Below are positions 7,250 to 47,628 of a DNA stretch of 64,000 nucleotides, piece by piece. Position numbers and translations under genes: made by a program. The stretch spans positions 647 to 64,646 of the forward strand of contig CAINHS010000122.1 of NCBI GenBank assembly GCA_903848955.1, in the 5' to 3' direction. The notes under the pieces are model-generated. The model searched no databases, was not told the DNA's origin, and was given only the letters and a program-made list of their open reading frames with translations. Position 1 is the stretch's first letter; each line of letters begins with the position of its first letter. Origin of the DNA: an uncultured beta proteobacterium. Its GTDB lineage: Bacteria; Pseudomonadota; Gammaproteobacteria; Burkholderiales; Rhodocyclaceae.

Positions 7250-8071
7250 ATGGCAGCCAACGACAACCCCGACATCACCAACGCAGAGTTTGCCCAGTTC
7301 CAGAAGCTGATCTACAAGATCGCCGGGATCAGTCTGGCAGACACGAAGAAGGTACTTCTGGTCGGCCGTCTCGGGCGGCGCCTGAAGCATTTCAATCTCT
7401 CCAGTTTCGCCGAGTACTACCGCTTCGTCGCCAGCGGCAGCGAGCCCGACGAACTGCAGACCATGGTCGACCTGCTGACGACCAACGAGACCTATTTCTT
7501 CCGCGAGGAGGCGCACTTCGATTTTCTCGCCAAGACCATCGTCGCCCAGCACCCGGCCGGTACGCCTTTCAACGTCTGGAGTGCCGCCTCGTCGACCGGC
7601 GAGGAAATCTACACCATCTCCTTCGTGCTGGCCGATACCCTGGGTCTCGACGCCAACTGGACGGTGACCGGCTCCGATATTTCGACTGCCGTGCTGGCCA
7701 CCGCCCAGCGCGGACTGTACTGGCTCGACCGTACCCGCGGTCTGCCCCAGTCCTATCTGCGCAAGTATTGCCTGAAGGGCGTTCGTACCCAGGAAGGCGG
7801 CTTCATGATTGCGCCTGAAATCAAGCGTCACACCCGCTTCCAGCAGGTCAACCTGAACCGGACCCTGCCGGTGCTGGGCAAGTTCCACGTCATCTTCCTG
7901 CGCAACGTCATGATTTATTTCGACGCCGAGACCAAGCGCCAGGTAGTCGCCCGACTCGTCGAGCAACTGCATCCCGGCGGCTATTTCATCGTCGGCCATT
8001 CGGAAAGCCTGAACGGCCTGACCGATACGCTGCGCGCCCTCAAACCCACCATTTACCAGTTGCCCGGCTGA
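7250..8071 (+). CDS. cheR: Chemotaxis methyltransferase CheR
   Basis: LTTNETYFFRE, WSAASSTGEE and IFLRNVMIYFD motifs. Confidence 0.95.
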   Translation: MAANDNPDITNAEFAQFQKLIYKIAGISLADTKKVLLVGRLGRRLKHFNLSSFAEYYRFVASGSEPDELQTMVDLLTTNETYFFREEAHFDFLAKTIVAQHPAGTPFNVWSAASSTGEEIYTISFVLADTLGLDANWTVTGSDISTAVLATAQRGLYWLDRTRGLPQSYLRKYCLKGVRTQEGGFMIAPEIKRHTRFQQVNLNRTLPVLGKFHVIFLRNVMIYFDAETKRQVVARLVEQLHPGGYFIVGHSESLNGLTDTLRALKPTIYQLPG

Positions 8072-8094
8072 CGCCATGACCACAGATCAAAATC

Positions 8095-8190
8095 TCACCG
8101 CAGAGGCGCAGAGGCGCAGAGAAATGCAAAGACCTGCAATGCTTGTGCCTTCCTCTGCGCTACCTCTGCGCCTCCGCGCCTCTGCGGTAA
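8095..8190. repeat. Palindromic intergenic element with internal 8-nt repeats (copy 1)
   Basis: Left arm ACCGCAGAG-GCGCAGAG-GCGCAGAG (8097-8121). Right arm CTCTGCGC...CTCTGCGC-CTCCGCGC-CTCTGCGGT (8153-8188). Confidence 0.85.
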
Positions 8191-8235
8191 AGCCTTTCCC
8201 TCTGCCGCCTTTCACCGGCCCCACCTGATCAGATC

Positions 8236-9315
8236 ATGGCGAACAAAATTACCGTAATCATCGTCGACGATTCGGCCGTGGTGCGCCAGGTGAACCGCGA
8301 AACCCTGGAGCGCGAAGCGGACATCGAGGTCATCGGCGTCGCCTCCGATCCGCTGTATGCCCTGGACAAGATGAAAGTGCAGTGGCCGGACGTGCTGGTG
8401 ATCGACATCGAAATGCCGCGCATGGACGGCCTGACCTTCCTCAAGAAGATCATGAGCGAACATCCGACGCCGACCATCGTCTGCTCCTCGCTCGCCGAAA
8501 AGGGCGCGGCGGCAACCATGGATGCACTCGCTGCCGGTGCGCTGGCCATCATCACCAAGCCCAAGATGGGGGTGAAGCAGTTCCTCCAGGATTCCAGCAA
8601 CGACCTAGTGTCGGCGGTGCGCGCCGCCGCCCGCGCCAACATGCGCCGGGTCACGCCCGGTGCGGCGCGGCCGTTGGCGCCGCCGCCCAAGCTGACGGCG
8701 GATGCCATGCTCGCGGCGCAGGCCGCCAGCAGCCGCGCCATGGCCAACACCACCGACCGGGTGGTGGCCATCGGCACCTCCACCGGCGGTACGCAGGCGC
8801 TGGAAGCGGTGCTGACGCGTCTGCCCAACGTCGGCAGCGGCATCGTCATCGTCCAGCACATGCCGGAAAAATTCACCGCCATGTTCGCCGAACGCCTGAA
8901 CAGCCTGTGCAAGCTCGAGGTGCGCGAGGCGCAGAACGGCGACCGCGTCATGTCCGGCCGCGCCCTGATCGCCCCGGGCGGCCGCCACATGATGCTCAGG
9001 CGCAGCGGCGCCCAGTATTACGTCGAGGTGGCCGACGGTCCGCTGGTGAATCGCCACAAGCCCTCGGTCGATGTGCTGTTCCGTTCCGTGGCGCAGATCG
9101 CCGGACGCAATGCGCTGGGCGTGATCATGACCGGCATGGGCGACGACGGCGCGCGTGGCATGAAGGAGATGCACGACGCCGGCGCCAGAACGGTGGCCGA
9201 AGACGAATCGACCTGCGTCGTGTTCGGTATGCCGAAGGAGGCGATCAAACTCGGCGGCGTGGACCGGATCGTTCCGCTCGACGCCATCCCCGCTGAAATC
9301 ATCTCCTACGGCTGA
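8236..9315 (+). CDS. cheB: Chemotaxis response regulator methylesterase CheB
   Basis: Receiver domain (DIEMP) plus esterase motifs GTSTGG, QHMP and TGMGDDG. Confidence 0.95.
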
Positions 9316-9331
9316 ACGTCGGAGGCAAACC

Positions 9332-9934
9332 ATGCCAAGCCTAGCTCTGCCCGTCGAACACGATCCCAAGGACCTCGAGCGCCGCGCCCGCAACATCAAC
9401 CCGGGCGGCTGGACGGTCGAGACCGAACGCCCGATCACCACGCTGCTGGGTTCCTGCGTTGCGGTCTGCCTCTACGACCCCAAGCTGCGCCTGGCGGGCA
9501 TGAACCACTTCCTGCTGCCCAGCCGTGCCAAGACCGCCGGCGACGACACCGACGTCATCCTCGCCGGCGATTATTCGATGGAAGTGCTGCTCAATACCAT
9601 GCTCATGAAGGGCGCGGTCAAGCAGCGCATCGTCGCCAAGGCCTTCGGCGGCGGTACCATCGTGACCTCGATCCTGATGGCCATCGGCCAGCGCAATGCC
9701 GAGTTCGCCCAGGAATGGCTGGCCCGCGAAGGCATTGCCTTGACGGCGCAGGATTTCGGCGGCGCCTGGTCGCGCAAGGTGATCTTCACGCCCGATGGCG
9801 GCGATGCCTTCTGCCGGCGGCTGCCCATTACCCAGCCCGGCGTGCAGGATGTGGTCAAGGCCGAGCGCGACTACGAACAATCGCTGATCCGGCCGGCCAA
9901 GCCGTCGGGCGAAAAGAAGATCGAGCTGTTTTGA
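9332..9934 (+). CDS. cheD: Chemoreceptor glutamine deamidase CheD
   Basis: TLLGSCVAVCLYD, GMNHFLLP and KAFGGG motifs. Confidence 0.92.
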   Translation: MPSLALPVEHDPKDLERRARNINPGGWTVETERPITTLLGSCVAVCLYDPKLRLAGMNHFLLPSRAKTAGDDTDVILAGDYSMEVLLNTMLMKGAVKQRIVAKAFGGGTIVTSILMAIGQRNAEFAQEWLAREGIALTAQDFGGAWSRKVIFTPDGGDAFCRRLPITQPGVQDVVKAERDYEQSLIRPAKPSGEKKIELF

Positions 9935-9992
9935 AGCCTGTCTGTTTTCTTCCTTCGCCGCAATGACGAAGAAATATAGGAGAGGATAAATC

Positions 9993-10838
9993 ATGGACGT
10001 AGCCGCGGTATTGACCAGCGTTGCCAAATCGGCGGCGCATGACGACCTGATTTTTCCGACCACCACCGAAATGGCGCTCAAGGTGCAGCGGGTGCTCGAC
10101 GATCCCGGCTGCTCCATCGATCAGCTGGCCAAGCTGGTGCGGGCCGATCCGCTGCTCTCGGCGAGAGTCGTGGCAGTCGCCAATTCGGTCATCTACAACC
10201 GTTCCGGCCGCGCCATCGACGATCCGAAAAGCGCCGTGTCGCGCATCGGTTTCAATACCCTGAGGGTGCTCGCCGCCGCGGTCGTGGTGCGCCAGATGGA
10301 AGGCATGGCGCACACCCCGGCGCACCGGCAGACGGCGGTGCGCCTGTGGGAGCACACCGCCCATGTCGCCGCACTGTGCCAGGTCATCGCCCGCCGTGTC
10401 ACCCATGTAAACCCGGACACCGCCTTTTTTGCCGGCATCATTCATGAGGTGGGCGGCTTCTACCTGATTTCCCGTGCCCGCGATTTTCCCGGCCTGCTGG
10501 AAGGCGCCAATGGCAGCCTGCTGGCCTGGGACGAAGGCGGTGCGGCCGAAGTCGGCCGTGCCGTGCTGCAGCGCCTGAGCGCTCCCGCGGCGGTGGTCGA
10601 GGCCATCGAAGGCCTCTGGCAGGGCTATCTCGCCATGCCGCCGCAAAGCCTCACCGACACGCTGCTGCTGGCCGATCAACTGGCGCCGGTGGAGTCGCCG
10701 CTGTCGCAACTCGCCGGCAACGGGCGCGAAGGCACCGAAGCGAACATCGACGTTGCGCTCGATGACCAGACCCTCTCCAGCATCCTCAAGGAATCGGCGG
10801 AAGAAGTCGAGTCGCTGATCGACGCGCTGCGCGCCTGA
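9993..10838 (+). CDS. HDOD domain protein
   Basis: DPLLSARVVAVANS, AVSRIGF and FFAGIIHEVG motifs. Confidence 0.88.
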   Translation: MDVAAVLTSVAKSAAHDDLIFPTTTEMALKVQRVLDDPGCSIDQLAKLVRADPLLSARVVAVANSVIYNRSGRAIDDPKSAVSRIGFNTLRVLAAAVVVRQMEGMAHTPAHRQTAVRLWEHTAHVAALCQVIARRVTHVNPDTAFFAGIIHEVGGFYLISRARDFPGLLEGANGSLLAWDEGGAAEVGRAVLQRLSAPAAVVEAIEGLWQGYLAMPPQSLTDTLLLADQLAPVESPLSQLAGNGREGTEANIDVALDDQTLSSILKESAEEVESLIDALRA

Positions 10839-13800
10839 TCATCCGACCGCCTGGCGGACGGCGTCGATCAGGGCCGTCAGTTCCTTGATCAGTGCGCTGC
10901 CGCAGTTATCGATGCTGTCTTTTGCCGCGCCGTCACGAACCGCCAGATGAAGCGCCTTCGCCGCCTCGGCGACCCGCATGGCACCGATCGTGCCGGCGGA
11001 ACCCTTGAGGGTGTGGGCCAGGTCCTTGAGACTGCCGAGATCATTTCCTGCCAGGGCTGCGGCGAGGCGCGGCAGGTCTTGGGCATGGCTGGCGGCGAAC
11101 ACCGCCAGCAGCTTGGCATGCTTCGCCGTATTGCCGTGCATCAGCGCCAGTCCGCGTTCGACATCCAGCCCCGGAACATATTCCAGGCGCCGCCGCCATT
11201 GTTCCGTGTCCGCTACCGGCTCCGCTGCCACCGCGGCCGCCGGCGGCGCCGTGCCGCCAGCATTTCCGGCGTTCGCCGGCAGCCACTTCAGCAGTATCGC
11301 GTAGAGCGCGTCGGGATCCACCGGCTTGGGGACGAAGTCGTTCATGCCGGCTTCCATGCAGGCGCGGCGATCGCCGTCGAAGGCGTTGGCGGTCATGGCC
11401 AGAATCGGTGTGCGGCTGCGGCCGGGCAGGGCGCGGATGACCCGCGTTGCCTGCAGCCCATCCATATCGGGCATCTGCATATCCATCAGGATCAGCGGGT
11501 AGTCGGTAGTCCGCGCACGCTCCACCGCTTGCCGTCCGTCGCTGGCGACATCCACCGCCAGACCGGCGCCTTCCAGCAGTTCCAGCGCGACTTCGCGATT
11601 GGTCGGGTTGTCTTCGACCAGCAACAAGCGGACGCCGCCATGATGCTGTCGCAGTTCGGCCTCGGCATCCACCGCCAGTTCGGCCACGGCGGGCGGCATC
11701 ATGCCGCGGCCGCGGCCGAGGCGGGCGGTGAACCAGAAGGTGCTGCCTTTGCCCGGCGTACTGTCAACGCCGACTTCGCCACCCATCAGTTCCGCCAGCC
11801 GGCGGTTGATGACAAGTCCGAGGCCGCTGCCGCCGTACTGTCGCGCCGTCGAGGCGTCGGCCTGCTCGAAGGCATGAAACAGGCCGGACATCTGTTCCGG
11901 GCTGATGCCGATGCCGGTGTCGGCGACCTCGAAGCGCACCAGGATGTCCGCGCCGTTGTCTTCGAGAAGGTGGGCGCGCAGGGAGACCGACCCCCGTTCC
12001 GTGAATTTGAGGGCATTGCTGATGTAGTTGACCAGCGCCTGCCGCAACCGCGTCGGATCGCCGCGCAACCAGAGCGGCACGCCGTCGGAATCAAAGCGGA
12101 TGGCCAGACCCTTGGCCCGGGCCTGGCCGGAGATCAGCGAACGGACATGGCCGAAGATCGCCGCCAGCGAGAAGTCGGTGTCCTCCAGGCTCAGCTTGCC
12201 GGCCTCGATCCTGGAGATGTCGAGAATGTCATTGATGATGGACAGCAGATGGTTCGCCGCAGTGTCGATCTTGCCCAACCGGCGCGCCTGCTCCGCGTTC
12301 GGTCCGGCGCGGCGCAGCAGGTGCGTGAGGCCGATGATGGCATTCATCGGGGTGCGGATTTCGTGGCTCATGTGGGCCAGAAAGGCGCTCTTCGCCAGGT
12401 TGGCGACTTCCGCCCGTTGCCGTGCATCTTCCAGTTGCGCGGTGCGGCTTGCGACCAGTTCCATCAGGCGATGATGGAACTGGTCGAGCTCGGCTTCGGC
12501 CTGCTTGCGTGCGGTGATGTCGGCATGGGTGCCGATGATGCGCAAGGGCTTGCCGTCCCCGCTGCGGCTGACCACCATGCCGCGATCGAGTATCCACATG
12601 TAGCTGCCGTCCTTGCAGCGGACACGGTGTTCGCTGGCGTAGACCGGTGTCCTGGCCTCGAGGTAGGCTTGCAGCGTGATCAGGACTGCGGCCTTGTCTT
12701 CGGGATGGATGCGGCTTTCCCATTCATCCAGGCCGTTGCCGACCTCGTCGTCGGCAAAGCCGAGCATTTCCTTCCAGCGCGGTGAGAAAAAAACCGTGCC
12801 GTCGGCCACGCTCCAGTCCCAGAGCCCGTCGCCGGTGCCTTCGATAGCGAAGCGCCAGCGATATTCGCTGTCCTTCAGCAACTGCTGGCTGCCCTCTATC
12901 TCGCGGGTCAGCCCTGCGGCGATGCGCGCTGCGTTTGCCCGCGTATTGATAACCGAGAGCACCAGGCCGGAAAGCAGCACACTGAGCGCAAGGCCGCCGA
13001 TCAGGGCCGCCCACGCCGGAGCGTGACTGATGGCCGCTGCCGCGGTCTGCTGGAATACCAGCAGCCACGAATGGCCGTTCAGCTCGAGCGTCCGCTGCTG
13101 ATGGAGCAGGTGGTTCCGCGCCGGCACCTGACCCGGACTGCTGGCGAACAGCAGCCGCGCCGGCAGCGCCTCAGGGCCGTCGTAGATGTGCAGGTCCACG
13201 GTGTTGCCGTCGCCGGCATCCCAGCCTTGCAGAATGCCGGCCATCAGATCCTGCATGCGGCAGCGGCTTGAAATCCAGCCGGTCAGCGCGGCGCGCTTCT
13301 GCGCCACGGTGTCCGTCGCCATGCCATTGCGATACACGGGAACATACATGACGGTTTCCGCCAGGAGTTCGGCCGCGCTCTCCGGCAGCCGTTCGATCTT
13401 GCCGCTCAGCGCCGCCCGCCCGCTGTCACGCGCCTGCTCCATGGCGGCGCGCCGCACCGGCTCGGAGAAGGCATCGAAACCGAAGGCGCGCAGATTGCCG
13501 CCGCTGAAGGGTTCGATATAGACGATGGAGCTGTAGCCGGCTCGCTCGCCGGCCGGATGAACGCTGTAGTCCGGAAAACCTTCGCGGCGGATCCGGGCGA
13601 CGTGGCTGGCGAGTTGATCGCGGCCGATAACCTGGTTGAACGCCAGTTCCTTTTGGGCGGGAACAGTCTCTTCCAGCCGCAGTTGGTCGACCCAGGCGCG
13701 CCACTGTTTGCGATCTGCCTTGTCCGCTGTCGAAAAAAGCGCTGCGCCGCCGCGCAGGATCAGCGCTTCGGTGCCGAGGCGTTCCCGGATCTTGAGGGTG

Positions 13801-13949
13801 ATCTGATCGCTGGTAAAGGCGAAATGCCGCGCGCCATCCTCTTCGATGCCCTGCCAGACCTGCAGGCTGGTGACCACCGTCAGCAGAATCCCGGCGCCCA
13901 GCGTTGCCCAGGCCGGCCCGCTTTTTCGCCATGGCTGCGTGCTCAACAT
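10839..13949 (-). CDS. Hybrid sensor histidine kinase (CHASE, PAS, HisKA, HATPase, REC, Hpt)
   Basis: CHASE-like [70 protein letters not shown]. Confidence 0.92.
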
Positions 13950-14037
13950 GCTGTCCGCAATTCGCGCAGTAGAGTCGCCTGGCGCATGGTCATTGCCGCT
14001 GCGAGCCTGGAATCAAGTGATCGGCGCGGCGCGGGCG

Positions 14038-17190: not shown

Positions 17191-17198
17191 GCCGGTCG

Positions 17199-25884: not shown

Positions 25885-26622
25885 ATGAACTACCACTGGA
25901 ACTGGGGCATCTTCCTCGAGCAGGTCAAAGGTGGCGACGAAACCTACCTCGACTGGCTGCTGACCGGCTTGGGCTGGACCTTGGCGGTGTCGCTGACGGC
26001 CTGGGTGATCGCGCTGACTCTCGGCATCTGCATCGGCGCCTTGCGCAGCATGCCTTCGCGCCTGCCGGTGATGCTCGGCAATGCCTGGGTCGAGTTGTTC
26101 CGCAACATTCCGCTGCTGGTGCAGATGTTCCTCTGGTTCTTCGTGATGCCCGAGTTCCTGCCGCGCGACTGGTCGCTGTGGGTCAAGCAGGACATGCCCG
26201 CCAAGGAATTCCTCACCGCCGCGCTGTGCCTCGGCTTGTTCACCTCTGCCCGCGTTGCCGAACAGGTGCGCGCCGGGGTCGGCAGCCTGCCGCGCGGCCA
26301 GCGCGATGCGGCTCTGGCGCTGGGCCTGACGCTGCCGCAGACCTACCGCCACGTGATCCTGCCACAGGCCCTGCGCATCGTCATCCCGCCGCTGACCTCG
26401 GAGTTCATGAACGTGTTCAAGAACTCTTCGGTAGCCTTTGCCATCGGCGTGCTGGAACTCACCTTCCAGGCGCGGCAGATGCAGGAGGACTCGGAACAGG
26501 GTATCGAGACCTTCCTCGCGGTGACTCTGCTCTACTTCATCTGTGCCTTCGCCGCCAACCGCGGCATGGTGCTGATCGAGGCCCGCACGCGGGTCCCCGG
26601 CCTCATCGCGCGGACCGGCTGA
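25885..26622 (+). CDS. gltJ: Amino acid ABC transporter permease
   Basis: MNYHWNWGIFL, ELFRNIPLLVQ and an EAA-loop-like segment. Confidence 0.85.
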   Translation: MNYHWNWGIFLEQVKGGDETYLDWLLTGLGWTLAVSLTAWVIALTLGICIGALRSMPSRLPVMLGNAWVELFRNIPLLVQMFLWFFVMPEFLPRDWSLWVKQDMPAKEFLTAALCLGLFTSARVAEQVRAGVGSLPRGQRDAALALGLTLPQTYRHVILPQALRIVIPPLTSEFMNVFKNSSVAFAIGVLELTFQARQMQEDSEQGIETFLAVTLLYFICAFAANRGMVLIEARTRVPGLIARTG

Positions 26623-26641
26623 GCATGGCAAAGACAAGGCA

Positions 26642-26714
26642 TACCGCAGAGGCGCAGAGGAAATCTTCTTCGCGCTGTTGCAGTTCTCTGCGAATCCTCT
26701 GCGTCTCTGCGGTA
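26642..26714. repeat. Palindromic intergenic element with internal CGCAGAG repeats (copy 2)
   Basis: TACCGCAGAGGCGCAGAGG ... CTCTGCGAATCCTCTGCGTCTCTGCGGTA, with a perfect 10-bp terminal inverted repeat. Confidence 0.85.
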
Positions 26715-26746
26715 GATGTTCAGCTCTTCTTTCGCAGACTCTGAAC

Positions 26747-27409
26747 ATGGGCGAATTCGACTTCACCGTCTGGCAACCGAGTCTGCCTTTCATCCGCGAC
26801 GGACTGCTGTTCACGCTGCGGCTGACGCTGGTCGCAATGAGCGGCGGCATCGTCATCGGTACCCTGCTGGCTCTCGCCCGGCTGTCGCCCGTCGCGCCCC
26901 TGTCACGCATCGCCGGCGCCTATGTCGACCTGATGCGTTCGGTGCCGCTGGTGCTGGTGATCCTCTGGTTCTTCCTGGTCATTCCCTTCATCAGCGGCGC
27001 GCCGGTCGGCGCCGAAACTTCCGCCATCATCACCTTCACTGCCTTCGAGGCCGCCTTCTATTGCGAAATCATGCGCTCCGGCATCCAGAGCGTGCCGCGC
27101 GGGCAGGTCGATGCCGCCCGGGCGCTGGGCCTCGGTCAGGCGCAAACCATGATCCATGTGATACTGCCGCAGGCGGTGCGCAACATGCTCCCGGTGCTGC
27201 TGACGCAGACCATCGTGCTGTTTCAGGACACCTCGCTGGTGTATGCCATCGGCGCCAAGGACATGCTCAAGGCTGCCGACATCGTGGGCAAGAACTACAA
27301 TCGGCCGGTCGAGATGATCGTGCTTTCGGCCCTGATCTACTTCGTCATCTGTTTCAGCCTGTCGCTGGCGGTAAAGCAACTGCAAAAAACCGTCGCCATC
27401 ATTCGCTAG
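26747..27409 (+). CDS. gltK: Amino acid ABC transporter permease
   Basis: MGEFDF..., DLMRSVPLVLVILWFF, EIMRSGIQSVPRGQ, FQDTSLV. Confidence 0.85.
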   Translation: MGEFDFTVWQPSLPFIRDGLLFTLRLTLVAMSGGIVIGTLLALARLSPVAPLSRIAGAYVDLMRSVPLVLVILWFFLVIPFISGAPVGAETSAIITFTAFEAAFYCEIMRSGIQSVPRGQVDAARALGLGQAQTMIHVILPQAVRNMLPVLLTQTIVLFQDTSLVYAIGAKDMLKAADIVGKNYNRPVEMIVLSALIYFVICFSLSLAVKQLQKTVAIIR

Positions 27410-37559: not shown

Positions 37560-37615
37560 TCCGGCGTCAATTTGACATCCAGTGGCTGGTGCGCTTCTTG
37601 CACTGAACTGAAACA

Positions 37616-38683
37616 ATGACCGCCACAAAACCTTTCCATGCCTTCAGCGGATTGGACTTGCTCTCCACCGCCGTGGTGCTGGTCGATGCCAAGCTGATCG
37701 TCCGCCATGTCAATCCGTCGGCGGAGAACCTGTTTGCCATCAGCTCGCGCCAGCTGCTCGGGCACCCCTTGCAGCGGCTGGTGGGCGACACGCCCGAACT
37801 CTCCGCCGCACTCGACAATGCGCTGAAGAACAACTGGAGCTATACCGGTCACAACATCCTGATCAAGCGCGCACCCGAGGTAAAGCTGCACGTCGATTGC
37901 ACCGTAACCCCGGTCGACGCCAACCCGGCGCGCCTGCTGCTGGAAGTGCGCCCCATCGACCAGCAGTTGAAGGCGGCGCGCGAGGAGCAGTTGGCGCAGC
38001 AGCAGCAGGCCAACCGCGAACTGGTGCGCAATCTGGCGCACGAGATCAAGAATCCGCTCGGTGGCATTCGCGGCTCCGCTCAGCTGCTGGAGCGCGAACT
38101 GGCCAGCGAGCCGCTCAAGGAATATACCCAGGTCATCATTGAGGAAGCCGACCGCCTGCAGGACCTGATGCAACGCCTGCTCTCTTCGCATCGCGTGATG
38201 CAGCCGGCGCTGGTCAGCATCCACGAGATTCTCGAACGCGTGCGACGGCTGATCCACGCCGAATACCACGATGTCACCGTGCGCCGTGACTACGATACTT
38301 CGCTGCCCGACATTACCGGCGACCGCGAGCAGTTGATCCAGGCGATTCTCAATATCTCGCGCAACGCCGCACAGGCGATGCAAGGCAAGGGGGAAATCCT
38401 GTTCTGCACGCGGGCGGCGCGACAGGTCACGCTGGCCAAGAGGCGCCACCAGCTGGCACTTGAATTGCAAGTCATCGACAACGGCCCGGGCATACCCGAC
38501 AACATTCGCGACAGGATCTTTTATCCGCTGGTGTCGGGCCGTGAAAACGGCAGCGGGCTTGGCCTCACCATTGCCCAGAGCTTTGTCCAGCAACACGGCG
38601 GAACCATTGATGTCACATCGCGTCCGGGTTACACCTGCTTTTCGCTGATGCTGCCGCTGAACCGAAAGAAAAAGGAAGATTGA
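37616..38683 (+). CDS. glnL: Nitrogen regulation sensor kinase NtrB
   Basis: PAS, LAHEIKNPLGGIRGSAQLL, DNGPG, GSGLGL. Confidence 0.95.
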   Translation: MTATKPFHAFSGLDLLSTAVVLVDAKLIVRHVNPSAENLFAISSRQLLGHPLQRLVGDTPELSAALDNALKNNWSYTGHNILIKRAPEVKLHVDCTVTPVDANPARLLLEVRPIDQQLKAAREEQLAQQQQANRELVRNLAHEIKNPLGGIRGSAQLLERELASEPLKEYTQVIIEEADRLQDLMQRLLSSHRVMQPALVSIHEILERVRRLIHAEYHDVTVRRDYDTSLPDITGDREQLIQAILNISRNAAQAMQGKGEILFCTRAARQVTLAKRRHQLALELQVIDNGPGIPDNIRDRIFYPLVSGRENGSGLGLTIAQSFVQQHGGTIDVTSRPGYTCFSLMLPLNRKKKED

Positions 38684-38771
38684 TGAACGACTTGTCCCCC
38701 GGCTCCTGCTCCGCAAGAAGGAGTAACTGCCGCGCTGCCTTGGGGTCGCGGCGAGGTGCCAGACCATGAAC
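38683..38771 (+). repeat. 83-nt insertion at the ntrB/ntrC junction flanked by an ATGAAC direct repeat
   Basis: ATGAAC at 38683-38688 and 38766-38771; internal hairpin GCCGCG (38729-34) / CGCGGC (38747-52). Only one copy in the window. Confidence 0.5.
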
Positions 38772-40178: not shown

Positions 40179-40184
40179 AGCCGG

Positions 40185-41003
40185 CTATTGCGGCTGCAGG
40201 ATCTTCAGCAGCAGCGCCTTGACCACCGCCGGCTCGAAAGGCTTGTCGCAGATGCCCGAAACGCCGGCTTCCTCGACTGCGGCGAGCCGGCCCTGATCGG
40301 ATTCGCTGGTGACCATCAGCACCGGCACCGAGTTCTGCCAGCTCTTATGGCGGATATGATCGATCAGCGCCTTGCCGTCCATCTCCGGCATGTTGTAGTC
40401 GGTCACCACCAGGTCGACCAGGTTTTCGGCCATCACCGCCACTGCCGCGACACCGTTTTCCGCCTCGACAAAGTTGCGGATGCCGAGATTCTCCAGCACG
40501 CGCCTGATGAAGCCACGCGCGCTGCGGCTGTCGTCCACGATCAGGACACGCAGTCCTTCGAGATCGATCCCGGCTTTCTCGAGGCCGGCGTCGTCGTCGT
40601 CGAGGTAATCCAGCGTGTTGCGCAAGGCCTTGCGCAGCTGCGCCTCTGAAAACGGTTTCGGCAGAATGCCGCAGACGCCGCTTTGCCGCACCGGATCGAG
40701 CACCTGCGGCCGCGTTTCGCTGGAAACGAGTATGAAGGGCACGTGCTCGAAATCCGGGTCGGCGCGCATGGTCCGGATCAGTTCGGTGCCGGACAGGTCC
40801 GGCAGGTACAGCGCGCTGATGACCACGCTGGGCAGTGCTTCGCGCAACAGCGCCAGCGCCTCGGCGGCGGTATTGCAACGCCGCACCTGGGTCACACCGA
40901 GCTGCCCCAACAGGGCGATGATGATGCGGCTCTGAACGGCCGAGGGTTCGACCAGGTAGACGATCAGTTCCGAAAATGCAGTAAGCACGATGGCAGCCAA
41001 CAC
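40185..41003 (-). CDS. Response regulator with two tandem receiver domains
   Basis: REC1 (VVISALYLPDLSG, lacks Asp) and REC2 (VVTDYNMPEMDG, canonical). Confidence 0.8.
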   Translation of the reverse strand: MLAAIVLTAFSELIVYLVEPSAVQSRIIIALLGQLGVTQVRRCNTAAEALALLREALPSVVISALYLPDLSGTELIRTMRADPDFEHVPFILVSSETRPQVLDPVRQSGVCGILPKPFSEAQLRKALRNTLDYLDDDDAGLEKAGIDLEGLRVLIVDDSRSARGFIRRVLENLGIRNFVEAENGVAAVAVMAENLVDLVVTDYNMPEMDGKALIDHIRHKSWQNSVPVLMVTSESDQGRLAAVEEAGVSGICDKPFEPAVVKALLLKILQPQ

Positions 41004-41081
41004 AGTTCACGGCCTTCCAGTATAGTCAATCCCGCCATTTCTGATTTTGTGTCACCGCCTCGTCGCCACACGGGACATTTC

Positions 41082-41849
41082 ATGCCAGCCAGCATTGCCG
41101 CCATTGCCGCCAGGCTCGGAGCACTCGCCTGCCGCTTCGACATCGACATCCTGTCGCGCTGCGATTCGACCAACGCCGTCTTGCTGAGCCGCGCCGAAGC
41201 CGGCGCGCCTGGCGGCACGGTGGTCATCGCCGAGGAGCAAACCGCCGGCCGCGGCCGGCGCGGCCGCAGCTGGTTCGCCAGCCCCGGCGACAGCCTCACC
41301 TTCTCCCTGCTCTGGCGTTTTGCACCGGGCACGCCGCCGGCCGGCCTCTCGCTCGCGGCGGGTGTCGCCGTCGGCCGCGCCCTGGCGCAGTCCGGCGCCG
41401 GCGAAACCTTGCTGAAATGGCCCAACGACATCCTCAAGGAAGGCCGCAAGCTCGGCGGCATTCTGGTCGAACTGCTGCCCGGCGCCCCGCATGTTGCCGT
41501 CATCGGCATCGGTCTCAATCTGCGCCTGCCCGCCGCCATGCCTGCCGACGTCCGTGCCGCCTCGGCCGCGATCGGCGCCGGCAGCGACGCCGATGTCTTG
41601 TATGCCGCCGTGCTGGGCGAACTGCTGGCTACGCTGGAAACCTTCGCCGCCGCCGGCTTTGCCGCGATTCGCGCGGAGTGGATGGCGCGCCATGCCTGGC
41701 CCAATGCCAAGGTCATCCTGTCATCCGATTTCGGGCCGTCCGGCGAGGGCATCTGTCGCGGCGTCGACAGCGACGGTGCGCTGCTGCTCGAGGCCGATGG
41801 CCGCATCGAGCGCATTCTCTCCGGCGAAGTATCGCTGCGAGCGGTTTGA
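41082..41849 (+). CDS. birA: Biotin-[acetyl-CoA carboxylase] ligase (no N-terminal HTH)
   Basis: DSTN, QTAGRGRRGRSW, KWPND, KLGGILVE, GIGLN. Confidence 0.93.
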   Translation: MPASIAAIAARLGALACRFDIDILSRCDSTNAVLLSRAEAGAPGGTVVIAEEQTAGRGRRGRSWFASPGDSLTFSLLWRFAPGTPPAGLSLAAGVAVGRALAQSGAGETLLKWPNDILKEGRKLGGILVELLPGAPHVAVIGIGLNLRLPAAMPADVRAASAAIGAGSDADVLYAAVLGELLATLETFAAAGFAAIRAEWMARHAWPNAKVILSSDFGPSGEGICRGVDSDGALLLEADGRIERILSGEVSLRAV

Positions 41850-41858
41850 AAGACAGCC

Positions 41859-42566
41859 ATGATTCTTTGCCTTGACGCCGGCAACTCGCGACTGAAGTGC
41901 GGCCTTTTCGACGGCAGCGGCTGGCGCATGCAGGGGGCGCTGGACTACCAGGCTTTCGATGATCTGGTCGCCGAACTGCCGCAGATGCCGGCACGCATCG
42001 TCGCCTGCAACGTGGCCGGCGAACCGATGCGGCTGCGCATAGAAGCGCTGGCAGGAAGCCTTGGCATTGCCCTCGACTGGCTCACCAGTTGCGCCGCCGC
42101 CTGCGGCGTGAGCAACGGCTACGACAAGCCGGCACAGCTCGGCGCGGATCGCTGGGCGGCACTGATCGCGGCGCGGGCGCTGCAGGCAGGGCCGTCCGTG
42201 GTGGTGATGGCCGGCACCGCCACGACCATCGACGCACTGGACGGCAACGGCGTATTTCGCGGCGGTCTGATCCTGCCCGGCCTGAGCCTGATGCGCGCCG
42301 CATTGGCCGGCAATACCGCCGACCTGCCGTATGCCGACGGCCATTACAAATCGCTGCCGACCAACACTGACGATGCCATCGTCAGCGGCGCGCTGCATGC
42401 CACGCTGGGCGCCATCGCACGCATTCACCAGACGCTGGGCGCTGATGCCGTATGCCTGCTGTCCGGCGGTGCGGCGCCGGCACTGGCGCCGCAGCTGGAT
42501 TTGCCGCATCGCCTGACGGACAATCTGGTGCTGGAAGGCCTGGCCCGCTACAGCCAGACGGTCTAG
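41859..42566 (+). CDS. coaX: Type III pantothenate kinase
   Basis: LDAGNSRLK, LGADRW, GTATTID, GGLILPG. Confidence 0.93.
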   Translation: MILCLDAGNSRLKCGLFDGSGWRMQGALDYQAFDDLVAELPQMPARIVACNVAGEPMRLRIEALAGSLGIALDWLTSCAAACGVSNGYDKPAQLGADRWAALIAARALQAGPSVVVMAGTATTIDALDGNGVFRGGLILPGLSLMRAALAGNTADLPYADGHYKSLPTNTDDAIVSGALHATLGAIARIHQTLGADAVCLLSGGAAPALAPQLDLPHRLTDNLVLEGLARYSQTV

Positions 42567-42633
42567 GCTAATCGTCCCGCGGCAGCACCGCACTATTGTT
42601 GACATCAAGTGCTTTTCAAACTAGCTTGCTTCG

Positions 42634-43965
42634 ATGCCTTCGCCACATCAACTGCCGGCTCGAAAACTCCCTGACGATGATCCGGCGCGGATGTTGTTGC
42701 ACGACGAAGTGCACGCGCGTCCCACGGCGCGGATCCGGCTGCCGGCGCTGGTGGTCTACATCGCGGTGCTGAACGAGGGTGTTTCACGGCAGCAGGAGTG
42801 CGAGCACCTGAGGTTGCTGCCCGGTCAGGAGGCCCTCGGCAGCGACCGCCTCGACGGCAATTTCCTGCGTCTGCGGTTTGAGCGATTCACGCTCAAGTGG
42901 GAACGGCACACCGAGTTCACCCGCTACTCGGTGGTGCAGTCGTTGCCGGCGGAAGCCTTGCTCGACGCTCATGATCCCGACCTGCATTCGGCATCGGCCC
43001 TGAGTGCCGAATGGCTGAGCGGGATTCCGGGCCGCACCATCTCGGCCGTTTTCCTGGCGATGGTTCACGGCGAGCTTGGCAGGCCGGAGGCGATAGTGAC
43101 GAAAGCGCAGTCGTGGTTCGGCGCGAATCCAATCGTTGCATCGTTGATGGGAGCCAACGGACATTCCTGCGCCTTTGCGGACTTCCAGGTCAGGCCGGAC
43201 GGGTTCGAGCGCATGCTCGTCGTCGCGCCGGCAGACACCTCCGAAACCAGGCCGGGACGCATTGCCCAGCGCTTGCTCGAGATTGAAACCTACCGGCTGC
43301 TGGCCCTGAAGGGCTTGTTTGTGGCAAAGGACATAGGGCCGATGCTGGCCCGCTCCGAGCATGCGCTGGCGGAGATCACTACCCTGCTTGAGGGAAAAAA
43401 GGATTCGGATCAGGAATTGCTGGAGCGATTGGTGTCGCTGGCGGCGGGAGTCGAGCGGGCAACGGCCCAGCACTCATTCCGGTTCTCTGCGACCAAGGCC
43501 TACGACGCTCTTGTCAGCCAGCGGATTGCCGAGCTGAGGGAAACAAGCATCCCCGGCAGTCAAAGCATCGGCGAATTCATGCAGCGCAGATTGTCGCCGG
43601 CCATGGCCACGGTGGCAGCGACGGCGCAACGCCTGACTTCGCTTTCCGAAAGAATCTCGAGAGCCAGCGCGCTGCTGCGGACCCGCGTCGATATCGCCAC
43701 CGAAGTGCAGAACCAACTGCTGCTCGAGAAATTGACGCGCGGCCAGGAAATGCAGTTGCGGCTGCAAACTACGGTTGAAGGCTTGTCCATCGCGGCGATC
43801 TCCTACTACGTCGTGAGTTTGCTGGTGTACGCGGTAAAGGCATTGAAGGGCGCGGGAGTTCCCGTCGATCCGGAAATTACCGCCGGCGCGCTGATTCCTC
43901 TGGTGCTGTGGGTGGTATGGCGAACCACGCAGCGGATTCACAAGAAGTTCCACGCCGGCCACTGA
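42634..43965 (+). CDS. DUF3422 family membrane-anchored protein
   Basis: LHDEVHARP, KWERHTEF, QRLLEIETYR, LRTRVDI, QLRLQTTVEGLSIAAISYY. Confidence 0.85.
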   Translation: MPSPHQLPARKLPDDDPARMLLHDEVHARPTARIRLPALVVYIAVLNEGVSRQQECEHLRLLPGQEALGSDRLDGNFLRLRFERFTLKWERHTEFTRYSVVQSLPAEALLDAHDPDLHSASALSAEWLSGIPGRTISAVFLAMVHGELGRPEAIVTKAQSWFGANPIVASLMGANGHSCAFADFQVRPDGFERMLVVAPADTSETRPGRIAQRLLEIETYRLLALKGLFVAKDIGPMLARSEHALAEITTLLEGKKDSDQELLERLVSLAAGVERATAQHSFRFSATKAYDALVSQRIAELRETSIPGSQSIGEFMQRRLSPAMATVAATAQRLTSLSERISRASALLRTRVDIATEVQNQLLLEKLTRGQEMQLRLQTTVEGLSIAAISYYVVSLLVYAVKALKGAGVPVDPEITAGALIPLVLWVVWRTTQRIHKKFHAGH

Positions 43966-44087
43966 AGACATTTCTGCGGGTTTGGCAGGCCAAGCGAATG
44001 CCCGGTTCGCGCTTTTGTCATGCGGCAAGCCACTTGATCACGCCGCCGGCATGACAGACAATGTGCCATCCGCCGCAGGAGTGTTCC

Positions 44088-44492
44088 ATGCCCATTCACT
44101 TTCTCGCCACGCTGCCGAACTTTCTCGCCTACCTTGGCGCCGCCATCGTCCTGCTGGTCGCCTTTGTCGCGATCTACCTCTATGTCACGCCCTACGACGA
44201 GATCGCGCTGATCCGCGCCAACAACAGCGCGGCGGCCATTTCGCTCTCAGGCGCGGTGCTGGGTTTCGCCCTGCCCATCGCCAACGTCATTGCCCACAGC
44301 GATACGCTGATTGATCTTGCGGTGTGGGGCGCGATTGCCGGCATCGTGCAACTGCTGGCCTGGGGCGTGGCGCGCCTGGCGCTGCCGCAACTGCAGCAAG
44401 ACATCGCCGCCGGACGCACGGCACCGGCTACCCTGATTGCCGCGCTGTCGCTTACCGTCGGCCTGCTCAATGCCGCCTGCATGACTTACTGA
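44088..44492 (+). CDS. DUF350 (YjfL-like) inner-membrane protein
   Basis: RBS AGGAG; four hydrophobic segments; VTPYDEIALIRANNSAAAI; ends LLNAACMTY. Confidence 0.85.
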   Translation: MPIHFLATLPNFLAYLGAAIVLLVAFVAIYLYVTPYDEIALIRANNSAAAISLSGAVLGFALPIANVIAHSDTLIDLAVWGAIAGIVQLLAWGVARLALPQLQQDIAAGRTAPATLIAALSLTVGLLNAACMTY

Positions 44493-44511
44493 ATCTACCA
44501 AGGAGACGCTC

Positions 44512-45531
44512 ATGGCACTCATGGATTTCATCAAGAAACAGTTCATCGACATCATCCAGTGGACCGAGCAGGACGACGACACCATGTCCTGGCGCTTCCC
44601 CATGGCCGAGTTCGAAATTCAGAACGGCGCCGCCCTGACGGTGCGCGAATCGCAGATGGCGGTGTTCGTCAATGAAGGCAAGGTGGCCGACGTCTTCGGC
44701 CCCGGCCAGTACAAGCTGACCACCCAGACGCTGCCGGTGCTGACCTACCTGAAGAACTGGGACAAGCTGTTCGAGTCGCCCTTCAAGTCCGACGTCTATT
44801 TCTTCAGCACGCGGCAGAAGATCGACCGCAAGTGGGGCACGCCGAACCCCGTCACCATCCGCGACAAGGATTTCGGCATGGTGCGGCTGCGCGCCTTCGG
44901 CATCTACGCCTTCCACCTCAGCGACCCCAAGGCCTTTCACACCACCCTCTCCGGCACCACGGAAAGCTACAGCACGGAGCAGCTCGAAGGCCAGTTGCGC
45001 AACACCATCGCCGGCCACATCGCCGACATCTTCGGCGAGTCCGGCGTGCCCTTCATCGACATGGCTTCGAACCAGGTCGAATTCGGCAATGCGCTGAAGG
45101 CCAAGATGGAGCCGATGTTCCAGGGCTACGGCCTGACGCTGGACAGCCTCAATGTGCAGAGCATCTCGCTGCCCGAGGAACTGCAGGCCATGCTCGACAA
45201 GCGCATCGGTGTGAACATGATGGGCGGCATGCAGGCCTACACCCAGTTCCAGACCGCGGAAGCGATCCCGCTGGCGGCGCAGAACGAAGGCGGTCTCGCC
45301 GGACTCGGCGCCGGTGTCGGCGTCGGCTTCGGCGTCGGCCAGCAGGTCGCGGCATCGATGGCGCAGTCGCTGAATCCGGCCGCCTCCAGCGCAGCGCCGG
45401 CCGCAGCCCCGGTATCGCCCGACGAAGTGGTGGCGACGATCGAAAAGCTGCATGGCCTGGTAGGCAAGGGCATGCTGTCGCAGGCTGAGTTCGATGCGAA
45501 GAAGGCCGAGTTGTTGAAGAAGCTCGGGTAA
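44512..45531 (+). CDS. SPFH (band 7)-domain protein, YdjI-like, with C-terminal SHOCT-like helix
   Basis: FIDIIQW, LTVRESQ, KWGTPNPVTIRDKDFG; C-terminal IEKLHGLVGKGMLSQAEFDAKKAELL. Confidence 0.85.
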   Translation: MALMDFIKKQFIDIIQWTEQDDDTMSWRFPMAEFEIQNGAALTVRESQMAVFVNEGKVADVFGPGQYKLTTQTLPVLTYLKNWDKLFESPFKSDVYFFSTRQKIDRKWGTPNPVTIRDKDFGMVRLRAFGIYAFHLSDPKAFHTTLSGTTESYSTEQLEGQLRNTIAGHIADIFGESGVPFIDMASNQVEFGNALKAKMEPMFQGYGLTLDSLNVQSISLPEELQAMLDKRIGVNMMGGMQAYTQFQTAEAIPLAAQNEGGLAGLGAGVGVGFGVGQQVAASMAQSLNPAASSAAPAAAPVSPDEVVATIEKLHGLVGKGMLSQAEFDAKKAELLKKLG

Positions 45532-45537
45532 AACCCG

Positions 45538-45660
45538 TTAGCCACAGAGCGTTTTGCGTGCCCTTGAATCCGCTGCGCGCGACGGCAACAGAGTTCACAG
45601 AGAAAAGCAAAGGCTGGCTCATGGTTTTTCCTCTGTGTCCTCTGTGATCTCTGTGGCTGA
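45538..45660. repeat. Palindromic intergenic element with internal CACAGAG repeats (copy 3, CAC variant)
   Basis: TTAGCCACAGAG...AACAGAG-TTCACAGAG / CTCTGTG-TC-CTCTGTG-AT-CTCTGTGGCTGA. Confidence 0.8.
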
Positions 45661-45675
45661 AGAGGTTTTTCTCTA

Positions 45676-47628
45676 ATGCCCTTTTCCGCCAACTGCCCTT
45701 CCTGCGGCGCGCCGGTTGTCTTCAAGTCCTCGGCGTCGTTTCACGGCGTCTGCGAATTCTGTCGCAGCACGCTGGTACGCCATGGCGGCAACCTGGAAAA
45801 CCTCGGTCGCATGGCCGACCTGATGGAGGACAGCTCGCCGCTCCGGCTCGGTAGCGAAGGCGACTATCGCGGCGTGCATTTCGCCGTGATCGGGCGCCTC
45901 CAGTTGCGTTACGCGGCCGGCATCTGGAACGAATGGCACCTGTTGTTCGATGACCGTCGTGGCGGCTGGCTTTCGGATGCCGGCGGCGAATACCTGATCA
46001 GCTTCCTCACGCCGCCCGGGGCGGAGTTGCCCGGGTTTGCCGCGCTGAAGCCGGACGACGGGCTCAAACTGGCCGGCAGGGACTTCGTCGTCAGCGATCT
46101 GGAAGAGGCCATGTGCATTTCGGGCGAAGGCGAACTGCCCTTCGCCTTCGGCGCCGGTTATCCGGCGCAGCTGGCCGATTTGCGTGGCACGGATCAAGCC
46201 GCGGCTGCCTTTGCCACCATCGATTACTCGGAAACACCGCCGCTGTTTTTCGTTGGCGAATCGCTGCCGTTTGCGGCCTTCAGCTTTACCGGGCTGCGCG
46301 ACGGAGCGGCGCCATCGAAGCCGGCAGGTACGCTCAAGGCGCTGCAATGCCCGGCCTGTGGCGGGGCGATCACGCTGCATGACAAGGCGGTGCAGAGCGT
46401 GGCATGCCCGTCCTGCCTCAGCGTGCTGGCCGCCGACAATGAGAGTCTGAGCATCCTGGCCGGGGCCGCCGCGGCAATGCGCGTCGAGCCGCTGCTCGAG
46501 CTGGGCAGCACGGGGCGCTTCGGCGGCAAGGAGTGGACCGTCATCGGTTTCCAGCAAAGGGCCGTCACCACCGGCGGCATCGACTATCCCTGGCAGGAAT
46601 ACCTGCTCCATCATGCGGACGAAGGATTCCGCTGGCTGGTCGAGGCGGACGGCCACTGGAACTGGGTCAGTCCGGTCGCCAATCCGCCGCGCTACACGGC
46701 CGGGCTGCCCTCGCTCAGCTACGCCGGCGAGCGCTACCTGCGCTATTCGGCGGGCGCCGCCGAGACGCGTTATGTCATCGGCGAGTTCACCTGGAAGGTG
46801 AGCGTGGGCGAAATCTGGCAGACCATCGACTTCATCGCCGCGCCGAAGATGTTGAGCCGCGAGACGAGCCGGAATGAAACCACCTGGTCGCTCGGCGAAT
46901 ATCTGCCGCCGGCCGAGGTCGCGGCCGCCTTCAAGCTGAAAACCGCGCTGCCAGCAGCTATCGGCATCGGCGCCAATCAGCCGAACCCGCGCCGTGAAAG
47001 CCATCGCCGCATCTGTAGCAACTTCTGGAAATTCTTTACCCTGGCCCTGGCGGCGCAGTTGCTCTGGGTCTTCATTCTGGGCGGACGCACGCTGCTCGAT
47101 CAGCGCCTGGTGTTCTCGCCGCAGAATGAAGAGCCGCTGACGACCCAGACCTTCCGGCTCGACAGCGCGGCGAGAAACATTGCGCTGCGCCACGACACCG
47201 ATCTCGACAACAACTGGCTGGGGCTGAACCTGACCCTGGTGGACAAGCACACCGGCCGTGCCTGGACGGCGCAAGGCGACATGGCCTACTGGCACGGCTC
47301 CGACGGCGGCGAAAGCTGGAGCGAAGGCGACCGCTCGCGCGAACTGGTGTTCCGCGACCTGCCGGCCGGCACCTATTACTTTGTCATCGATCCGGAAATA
47401 TCCGCGGAGAAACCGGTCGCCGTGGCAGACCGCATCAAGGTCATCCGCGACCAGGCCGCCTGGAGCAACTTCTTCTTCCTGGTGATTTTCCTTGCCGCCT
47501 TCCCGCTGTTCAGCCGCTACCGGATGACTGTCTTCGAGAACGGGCGCTGGCAGAACGCGGATTTCCTGTCCAGCGGCGCGGACCTGTCATCCGGCGGCAG
47601 TGACGACGACTCCGGGGGAGACGACTGA
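45676..47628 (+). CDS. DUF4178 domain protein with zinc ribbons and C-terminal membrane segments
   Basis: CPSCG..CEFC, GRLQLRY..G.WNEWHL, second ribbon CPACGG..CPSC, WQEYLL; TM segments; Ser/Gly/Asp-rich tail. Confidence 0.8.
   Translation: MPFSANCPSCGAPVVFKSSASFHGVCEFCRSTLVRHGGNLENLGRMADLMEDSSPLRLGSEGDYRGVHFAVIGRLQLRYAAGIWNEWHLLFDDRRGGWLSDAGGEYLISFLTPPGAELPGFAALKPDDGLKLAGRDFVVSDLEEAMCISGEGELPFAFGAGYPAQLADLRGTDQAAAAFATIDYSETPPLFFVGESLPFAAFSFTGLRDGAAPSKPAGTLKALQCPACGGAITLHDKAVQSVACPSCLSVLAADNESLSILAGAAAAMRVEPLLELGSTGRFGGKEWTVIGFQQRAVTTGGIDYPWQEYLLHHADEGFRWLVEADGHWNWVSPVANPPRYTAGLPSLSYAGERYLRYSAGAAETRYVIGEFTWKVSVGEIWQTIDFIAAPKMLSRETSRNETTWSLGEYLPPAEVAAAFKLKTALPAAIGIGANQPNPRRESHRRICSNFWKFFTLALAAQLLWVFILGGRTLLDQRLVFSPQNEEPLTTQTFRLDSAARNIALRHDTDLDNNWLGLNLTLVDKHTGRAWTAQGDMAYWHGSDGGESWSEGDRSRELVFRDLPAGTYYFVIDPEISAEKPVAVADRIKVIRDQAAWSNFFFLVIFLAAFPLFSRYRMTVFENGRWQNADFLSSGADLSSGGSDDDSGGDD

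Follow-up and report, generated by a model that had tools for sequence, protein, structure and literature searches.

The window analysed here is a stretch of 64,000 nucleotides from contig CAINHS010000122.1 of an uncultured member of the genus Sulfuritalea (assembly GCA_903848955.1; 3.62 Mb in 151 contigs, 63% G+C, 99.97% complete), and the subject of this report is a set of short inserts that fill four gaps between its neighbouring genes. As assigned by Pfam, the genes on either side of these gaps encode CheR and CheB (cheR/cheB), two ATP-binding cassette transporter permeases (gltJ/gltK-like), an NtrB-like kinase and an NtrC-like sigma-54 activator (ntrB/ntrC), and SPFH and DUF4178 proteins (SPFH/DUF4178). 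Long palindromes, referred to as the CAGAG family, occupy the cheR/cheB, gltJ/gltK and SPFH/DUF4178 gaps. In their cores, two to four direct words of 8-9 nt (CGCAGAGG or CACAGAG-N2) lead to a variable centre, beyond which these words recur in inverted form. The coordinates and fold scores of the inserts are collected in Table 1; a search of the whole window against Rfam gave zero family matches. Throughout, G-numbers denote other Sulfuritalea genomes, C-numbers contigs of the genome under study and L-numbers loci in relatives.

Table 1. Inserts and associated features in the four gene gaps, in window positions (fold z, predicted RNA fold relative to shuffled sequence; ORF, open reading frame).
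Feature	Position	Strand	Remarks
CAGAG hairpin core, subfamily A (words CGCAGAGG), cheR/cheB gap	8098..8187	.	Fold z = -8.0; terminal sequences extend to about 8086 and 8199; empty alleles in G013, G018 and G015
Left copy of old cheR/cheB junction, CGCC ATG ACC ACA G	8072..8085	+	Orphan start codon at 8076; resembles empty alleles
cheR/cheB bridging small ORF, 50 codons	8076..8228	+	Starts 4 nt past cheR stop; stop ends 7 nt before cheB ATG (8236)
CAGAG hairpin core, subfamily A, gltJ/gltK-like permease gap	26644..26712	.	Fold z = -4.4; empty alleles in G020, G002, G015 and G013
Left copy of gltJ/gltK junction, CTGAGCATGG	26619..26628	+	gltJ stop plus orphan ATG; empty alleles have CTGAGATGG once
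Right copy of gltJ/gltK junction, CTGAACATGG	26741..26750	+	Orphan stop plus true gltK start (26747)
gltJ/gltK bridging small ORF, 39 codons	26625..26744	+	Runs through hairpin
ntrB/ntrC insert, decayed member of GC-rich family	38684..38765	+	3' module 'CCTTGGGG(C/T)(C/G)GC..GG'; fold z = -0.17; G019 has ATGA overlap
ntrB/ntrC bridging small ORF, 28 codons	38683..38769	+	ATG overlaps ntrB stop (TGATG), TGA overlaps ntrC start (ATGA); ATGAAC at both ends
CAGAG hairpin core, subfamily B (words CACAGAG), SPFH/DUF4178 gap	45542..45656	.	Nested hairpin in left arm; fold z = -4.1; empty alleles with spacer
Left terminal TAAAACCCGTTAG of the SPFH/DUF4178 insert	45529..45541	+	Includes SPFH stop TAA (TGA in empty alleles)
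Right terminal CTGAAGAGGTTTT + 6 nt of the SPFH/DUF4178 insert	45657..45675	+	Takes the place of the native spacer and its Shine-Dalgarno sequence

A sequence-only reading of the window had described the four gaps as short structured inserts of a single element type, and the strings that it quoted proved accurate in wording and position. All four gaps are indeed insertions, but only three are strongly structured, and the ntrB/ntrC insert belongs to a second, GC-rich family. Membership of this insert in the CAGAG family was considered and rejected on the absence of the motif and of any exceptional fold. Its sequence is a degenerate form of the 3' module of a GC-rich hairpin element, of which better copies are found in relatives at the same and at other junctions. 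About 25 copies of the GC-rich element are present in the genome under study, at loci that include C116:3073, C42:10069 and C88:7545. Its 5' module reads GGTTCG..CGC..GCG..CTCC; on the 3' side there is a hairpin whose loop is TTGGGGCGGCCC(G/T)GC, and the element ends in stem-CCTTGGGGCGGCCC(G/T)GCGG-stem. It usually abuts a start codon, and the 3' strand of the stem is often GGAGG, an arrangement in which the ribosome-binding site would be base-paired within the stem. Separately, the gltJ/gltK junction of five congeners (G018, G001, G016, G024 and G010; L006, L007, L011, L012 and L013) was seen to hold an unrelated GC-rich structured insert of 249-411 nt, with stop-N-ATG on both sides and, in two of these genomes, a single spanning ORF of 344-404 nt.

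The genome contains about 90 CAGAG palindromes, comprising 74 clean copies with paired left and right arms and 17 rescued loci that are solo or variant. They fall into three subfamilies, and their arms are inverted arrays of the 8-9-nt words CGCAGAGG or CACAGAGA. Conservation reaches about 12-16 nt beyond the core on both sides, where an A-rich left and a T-rich right terminal stand in inverted orientation (consensus AAAAcCtTtnA/CC...GG/TnAaAGgTTTT). Terminal inverted repeats common to many short copies are a property of miniature inverted-repeat transposable elements (MITEs). Similarity of the copies over their whole length, another MITE property, was absent: the centres differ at every locus, except in one 133-bp variant, three copies of which have a common centre at different loci. 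A probable fourth locus of this variant, C71:26975, looks alike by eye. A common centre as a general sign of copy-and-paste movement was rejected, the centres being locus-specific.

Outside the window, CAGAG sequence was also seen within genes. A 60-nt copy at C7:83519-83577 lies in frame in the ORF of an RND/AcrB-like transporter, where about 20 extra residues (LATEDTESTEKGFHASTSASVA) are placed in a loop and the frame is kept. A solo right arm (CTCTGTGCCCTCTGTGGC) at C113:11429-11445 lies within a predicted signal peptide, MKIFLSVLCALCGYGFLAPAQA; this arm remnant appears to have been taken into coding sequence.

The position of the copies was evaluated against gene calls from a home-made caller (3,335 genes, 88.9% coding). 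Enrichment at co-directional stop-start junctions over convergent or divergent gaps had been anticipated from the window, and the genome scan placed 82 of the 89 classifiable copies between co-directional genes. Median distances of the cores are 17 nt to the upstream stop and 24 nt to the downstream start. Of 83 such gaps, 72 measure less than 50 nt once the element is taken out, a class that makes up 16.1 kb, or 4.6%, of the 351 kb of non-coding DNA. As the sequence-only reading had supposed, copies at these short junctions leave the adjoining genes intact. No copies were found in divergent gaps longer than 100 nt (97 kb) or in convergent gaps longer than 50 nt (43 kb), and just one was found in co-directional gaps longer than 200 nt (113 kb). 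This near-absence from long neutral gaps argues for something more than random insertion plus selection. As for the further suggestion that the element recognises translational coupling sites, such recognition is not separable in these data from the survival of only those insertions that keep a stop and a start. By the same gene calls, about 46% of the genes begin with NTGA; ATGA-type overlaps are therefore very common in this genome, and tests of coupling must allow for them. A general role of the element as the source of the downstream Shine-Dalgarno sequence was not supported, a Shine-Dalgarno-like 4-mer being present at 51% of sites vs. 46% genome-wide and lying within the element terminal in only 19 of 69 sites.

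Alleles of 28 junctions, the four of the window and 24 taken in contig order, were compared with six genomes of the same genus. Every one of the 28 was free of the element in at least one congener. The empty gaps mostly measured -4 to +37 nt, with one spacer of about 60 nt, and ATGA, TGATG and TAATG overlaps were common among them. All four gaps of the window, when set against orthologous operons, have empty or short junctions in Sulfuritalea relatives: 'CTGAGATGG' at gltJ/gltK, 'TAA GCC ATG' or 'TAG CCGT ATG' at cheR/cheB, an ATGA overlap at ntrB/ntrC and a 24-nt spacer at SPFH/DUF4178. Most Sulfuritalea genomes and the outgroups Azonexus and Sulfurisoma carry a spacer of 9-37 nt at SPFH/DUF4178, and the empty state is thus ancestral there.

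The filled alleles of relatives, inspected at 12 junctions, carried a different element in nine cases, belonging to another CAGAG subfamily, the CGCAGAT family, the CACCAAG family or the GC-rich family. At C55:23949, the genome under study has an element with the word CGCAGAGG, G018 has one with CACAGAGG, G002 has a CGCAGAT element and three other genomes are empty. The copy at C15:85283 is present in G002 as the same copy with a visibly similar centre, which indicates inheritance. A similar copy at the same position was found at SPFH/DUF4178 in G018, with its loop inverted; the difference would mean that the centre had flipped between the two arms. When window positions 45595-45625 and L101 of G018 were compared by eye, the loop was inverted and the nested hairpin stayed in the left arm. 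CGCAGAT(T) and CACCAAG were observed as further arm-word families at the same junctions in congeners (L091, L094, L095 and L098 in G002 and G013; L096 in G013).

Read from the alleles, gain and loss of elements at operon junctions accompanied the diversification of the genus, and different families struck the same junctions independently. The pattern of presence and absence could instead reflect mainly precise loss, by deletion between direct repeats around the palindrome, from an element-rich ancestor. Direct repeats beside hairpins do favour precise excision, and the empty alleles have clean junctions. We consider loss as the main cause improbable, in view of the empty state of the outgroup genera at the one junction looked at, the different families or subfamilies at the same junction in different species and the several complete genomes with nearly zero copies.

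The sequence-only reading had also proposed that each insert is flanked by a duplication of the stop/start junction. At gltJ/gltK this is the case: the empty alleles have ...GGCTGAGATGGGCGAG... once, and the genome under study has CTGAGCATGG to the left and CTGAACATGG to the right of a 112-nt insert, so that the junction is single in the former and double, with 9/10 positions identical, in the latter. The duplication is likewise present at ntrB/ntrC, where the inserts of the genome under study, G002 and G018 (49-112 nt) begin with the old start codon (ATGAAC...) and end at the true ATGAAC, and where G019 has an ATGA overlap. Inserts of similar size, as judged from BLAST spacing, are present at this junction in G013 and G020. 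The motif quoted for cheR/cheB was weak, but duplication is seen there too, in a left flank similar to what the empty alleles have as spacer, ATG and first codons ('GCC ATG ACA GAA' and 'CCGT ATG GCC AAC'). Nothing is doubled at SPFH/DUF4178, for which the proposed repeat, TAA vs. TAATG, is trivial.

Elsewhere in the genome, direct repeats were found at C141:2324 (GGAGTAAGGGCAA / GGAGTAAGAGCAA, 12/13), trpG/trpD (AAAACCATGA, 10 nt), C2:1077 (TTGTGATGA / TTGCGATGA, 8/9) and, as ATGA(N) of 4-6 nt, at several sites. With repeats from 4 to at least 13 nt, the length of the duplication is not fixed. Target duplication in the fixed-length sense that applies to MITEs was consequently abandoned, the repeats being absent at some sites, among them spacer junctions such as SPFH/DUF4178, and weakly above chance overall. 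The longest direct repeat between full flanks was barely above that of permuted pairs (6.03 vs. 5.76). Automatic mapping of duplication length, in which alignments were extended from coding anchors into the empty alleles, was too noisy because the junction sequences are too diverged. Family-wide, the main trace of duplication is an orphan start codon at the upstream stop, a signal stronger than that of flank alignment. Of the element gaps, 33% have an ATG that overlaps the upstream stop, vs. 14% of control gaps (701 element-free co-directional gaps of 60-300 nt; p = 6e-5); for an ATG within -4 to +8 nt, the figures are 53% vs. 23% (p = 1.5e-7). Stop codons that overlap the downstream start were not significantly enriched (54% vs. 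45%, p = 0.09).

Insertion could also be untargeted and near-random, with purifying selection keeping the insertions that spare both genes and with the duplication a product of survivorship. Such an account would agree with the variable length of the duplication and with the observation that duplications containing a stop and a start occur where the ancestral junction overlapped or was very short, and not at spacers of 24-37 nt. It is nonetheless rather unlikely, given that the most neutral DNA is nearly free of copies and that the distance from the upstream stop to the core is tight.

At cheR/cheB, gltJ/gltK and ntrB/ntrC, a small ORF begins at or beside the upstream stop, passes through the whole insert and ends at or beside the downstream start. 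This bridging small ORF is a new observation of the present analysis. Genome-wide, a bridging ORF was found in the sense direction at 37 of 69 sites vs. 11 of 69 in the antisense direction, and 21 of the 37 end in an ATGA overlap. Filled alleles of relatives gave a similar picture (15 of 29 vs. 1 of 29 antisense); among the 15 are GC-rich inserts 344-404 nt long and, at C55:23949, each of the three independent insertions. The G002 insert homologous to that of ntrB/ntrC likewise has an in-frame bridging ORF. Among 19 sites that have exactly one candidate ATG and one stop, the two were in frame with an open path between them in 14 vs. 6.3 expected (binomial p = 0.0004). We infer that the bridging ORF is kept by selection so that ribosomes keep moving through the hairpin.

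In-frame bridging ORFs, together with well conserved arms and very stable hairpins, would also be expected if the hairpins were host regulatory devices, such as RNase III sites, mRNA stabilisers or translational attenuators, that are kept for operon control. The same housekeeping junctions are, however, empty in congeners, and unrelated families are interchangeable at one junction. One copy, moreover, lies in frame within a transporter gene, and the family is linked to a nuclease gene. A host-device origin is thus very improbable.

The link to a nuclease comes from two long CAGAG copies, which hold coding sequence that matches PF13366 (PDDEXK_3) and TIGR04256 (GxxExxY). Across the GxxExxY genes analysed, matches to these profiles reach 150 bits (curated cut-offs, 22 and 35). 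The function of this family is given as 'Unknown' (PMC3424549). The genome under study has only three PF13366 loci, at ribF/ileS, trpE/trpG and pilB/pilC; each is decayed, enclosed in an element and oriented in the direction of its host operon. The statement that the window encodes no mobilising enzyme was borne out, and the genome as a whole offers these three decayed PF13366 genes and no gene for a transposase associated with repetitive extragenic palindromes (RAYT).

Among 31 Sulfuritalea genomes, 15 besides the one under study carry one or two intact GxxExxY genes. All 18 intact genes that were inspected lie between inverted word arrays, in a junction of co-directional conserved genes, and each of the 18 has its ATG at the left arm's inner end. 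For one cassette, the host ORF enters the arm and ends at a TGA that overlaps the cassette ATG. The full-length form in relatives is a GxxExxY gene of 120-140 codons between arms, and its arm words and terminal sequences are identical to those of the short copies. These intact cassettes are potential autonomous partners of the kind that MITEs have; in the genome under study such partners are present in decayed form only. The description of the inserts as non-autonomous mobile elements therefore gained in strength, with about 90 gene-less copies, empty alleles at every junction tested and nuclease-bearing full-length partners in relatives. The arm word varies with the protein subfamily (CACAGAGA, CGCAGAGG, CACGGAGA, CACGGCGA or CGCAGATT). 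A separate GxxExxY subfamily was observed with the CGCAGAT family (L033, L035 and L039).

Matches to the arm-word pattern ranged from 0 to 293 per genome in the genus, several complete genomes being near zero. An intact gene with matching arms was present in 8 of 11 genomes with at least 100 pattern matches vs. 4 of 20 low-copy genomes (Fisher p = 0.006); copy number in the genus is thus correlated with possession of such a gene. The phylum-wide sample comprised 150 other Pseudomonadota genomes, in which 23 PF13366 genes had flanks that could be analysed. Inverted repeats in these flanks scored a median of 15, as against 7 (maximum 11) in control flanks about 600 nt away, and they were again made of tandem words.

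An AlphaFold (AF2) model built from 30 sequences (predicted local distance difference test score 94) was nearest to Cas4 and the lambda/LHK exonucleases (E about 1.5e-3, TM about 0.5). Residues D67, K79, E27, Q91 and Y95 are invariant, and E77 is conserved in at least 90% of sequences; together they make up the RecB/Cas4 motif set (E, D, ExK, QxxxY). As modelled, the GxxExxY protein has a Cas4/RecB-like PD-(D/E)XK fold. A sequence search of the PDB with the nuclease gave no match, and its relatives were recognised by fold comparison only. A literature search for a paper describing these GxxExxY cassettes found none.

Intact and decayed cassettes recur at a few junctions, namely trpE/trpG, ribF/ileS, pilB/pilC and upstream of serS, and across the genus trpE/trpG is found in intact, decayed, other-family and empty states. 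These states, the three decaying cassettes of the genome under study and the individual centre of each copy are what would be seen if the short copies had never moved as such and each were the in-place remnant of a nuclease cassette that lost its gene. This possibility is doubtful. Genomes hold 0-2 nuclease genes and up to about 100 short copies, the 133-bp variant has a common centre at different loci, and where relatives are filled at the orthologous site, the insert is nearly always a short one. Decay in place of the miniatures is favoured by their unique centres, movement by the copy numbers and the 133-bp variant.

The elements were compared with known systems of repeats. Repetitive extragenic palindromic (REP) sequences and REPINs, with their RAYT enzymes, are similar in that many short extragenic palindromes accompany a single-copy enzyme gene that lies between the same repeats, and in that repeat and enzyme co-vary. 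Unlike those systems, the enzyme here is a predicted PD-(D/E)XK protein of the GxxExxY family and not an HUH Y1 transposase, of which none is present, and the arms are phased tandem words in copies at intra-operon stop/start junctions. An origin of the palindromes as REP sequences or bacterial interspersed mosaic elements (BIMEs) moved by an IS200/IS605-like RAYT transposase could be considered for multicopy extragenic palindromes within transcribed regions, but it is scarcely credible here: a profile search of the 99.97%-complete genome for RAYT (PF01797) gave no match, with control genomes that do match, the arms are tandem words and not single REP hairpins, and the associated gene is PF13366.

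Bacterial MITEs such as Correia/NEMIS, ERIC/IRU, RUP and SMAG are hairpin-forming, gene-less, co-transcribed with their neighbours and polymorphic for presence and absence. Their whole sequence is common to the copies, and they make short target duplications of fixed length (e.g., TA for Correia); in the elements described here, by contrast, the arms alone are common to the copies, the centres are unique and the duplication is variable. The foldback (FB) transposons of Drosophila resemble these elements in having inverted arms of tandem sub-repeats, a heterogeneous centre and, in some copies, coding sequence. FB transposons are eukaryotic and far larger, encode other proteins and have a target duplication that is reported as fixed. 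Rickettsia palindromic elements (RPEs) are palindromic repeats that are tolerated within translated sequence, to which the predicted bridging ORFs through the hairpin and the copy in frame within a transporter gene can be likened; RPEs are not known to have an associated nuclease gene or to prefer junctions. Free-standing homing endonuclease genes and ORF-bearing intervening sequences of 23S rRNA put a small gene, nuclease or guest, either into a stem-loop or between two conserved genes. As with homing endonucleases, the same site is occupied or empty among relatives, as shown by the trpE/trpG cassette; unlike them, about 90 gene-less copies are present at about 90 different junctions, a transposon-like distribution that is not restricted to a cognate site.

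The Ssn (GIY-YIG) nucleases with their NTS/SRM hairpin repeats have an arrangement of repeat, small single-domain nuclease gene and repeat, together with hundreds of orphan repeats and repeat variants specific to each homologue (PMC11893778). The elements of this study are similar in that a nuclease gene lies between its own hairpin repeats on both sides and many repeats are orphans. They differ in fold, which is predicted to be PD-(D/E)XK and not GIY-YIG. The Ssn repeats are single inverted repeats of 20-50 nt, and their description mentions neither a junction habitat nor a duplication or bridging ORF (PMC11893778).

Taken together, these comparisons make it probable that three of the inserts in the window are gene-less miniature copies of a selfish element of foldback type tied to a GxxExxY nuclease, that the fourth is a decayed copy of a second hairpin family, and that these elements colonise operon junctions. 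In the mechanism that we propose, the nuclease would recognise its own arm words and mobilise both the cassettes and the miniatures. Insertion would bring a short target duplication of variable length, and at overlapping stop and start codons (ATGA, TGATG) this duplication would be what keeps the stop whole on the left and the start whole on the right. A small ORF across the hairpin would then be framed by the two orphan codons, one a start and one a stop. Selection would keep this ORF in frame, ribosomes would melt the hairpin, and translational coupling, or protection from polarity, would survive. The best-supported reading of the persistence of the elements at junctions is that stop and start codons would both stay intact and the insert would still be translated across.

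Several points weigh against this interpretation. The whole case is one of comparative sequence analysis, and the gene calls rest on a home-made caller. The genome under study has about 90 copies, yet zero intact nuclease genes. The centres are locus-specific, unlike those of copy-and-paste MITEs, and fit independent decay in place. The duplication, of 4 to at least 13 nt, has no constant length and escapes detection at many sites; alignment of left and right flanks beat permuted pairs by a small excess (mean score 11.81 vs. 11.05, p = 0.002). At SPFH/DUF4178 the native 24-nt spacer was replaced and not duplicated, and SPFH ends at a TAA that belongs to the element terminal, its stop in the empty alleles being TGA. 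The antisense control for the bridging ORF is not wholly fair at element boundaries, and the frame test is the cleaner support.

A wider proposal is put forward tentatively, as one that we hold to be somewhat less probable than its contrary. GxxExxY (PF13366) proteins would, by this proposal, be the nucleases of a widespread and undescribed prokaryotic class of foldback elements. The class would be characterized by lineage-specific phased words of 7-9 nt, by insertion specific to operon stop/start junctions and by variable duplication; its inserts would be selected to be 'translationally transparent' by way of the bridging ORF, and this genus would provide the first evidence of their movement.

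The PF13366/TIGR04256 family, large and of 'Unknown' function, gains a concrete genomic setting from these findings. Inserts of this kind can mislead the annotation of operons and start codons and can break assemblies, and the pairs of nuclease and arm word may serve as a source of sequence-specific DNA tools. If the interpretation is true, selfish DNA may inhabit even tightly coupled operons when it is enclosed by a small ORF reaching from the stop of one gene to the start of the next.

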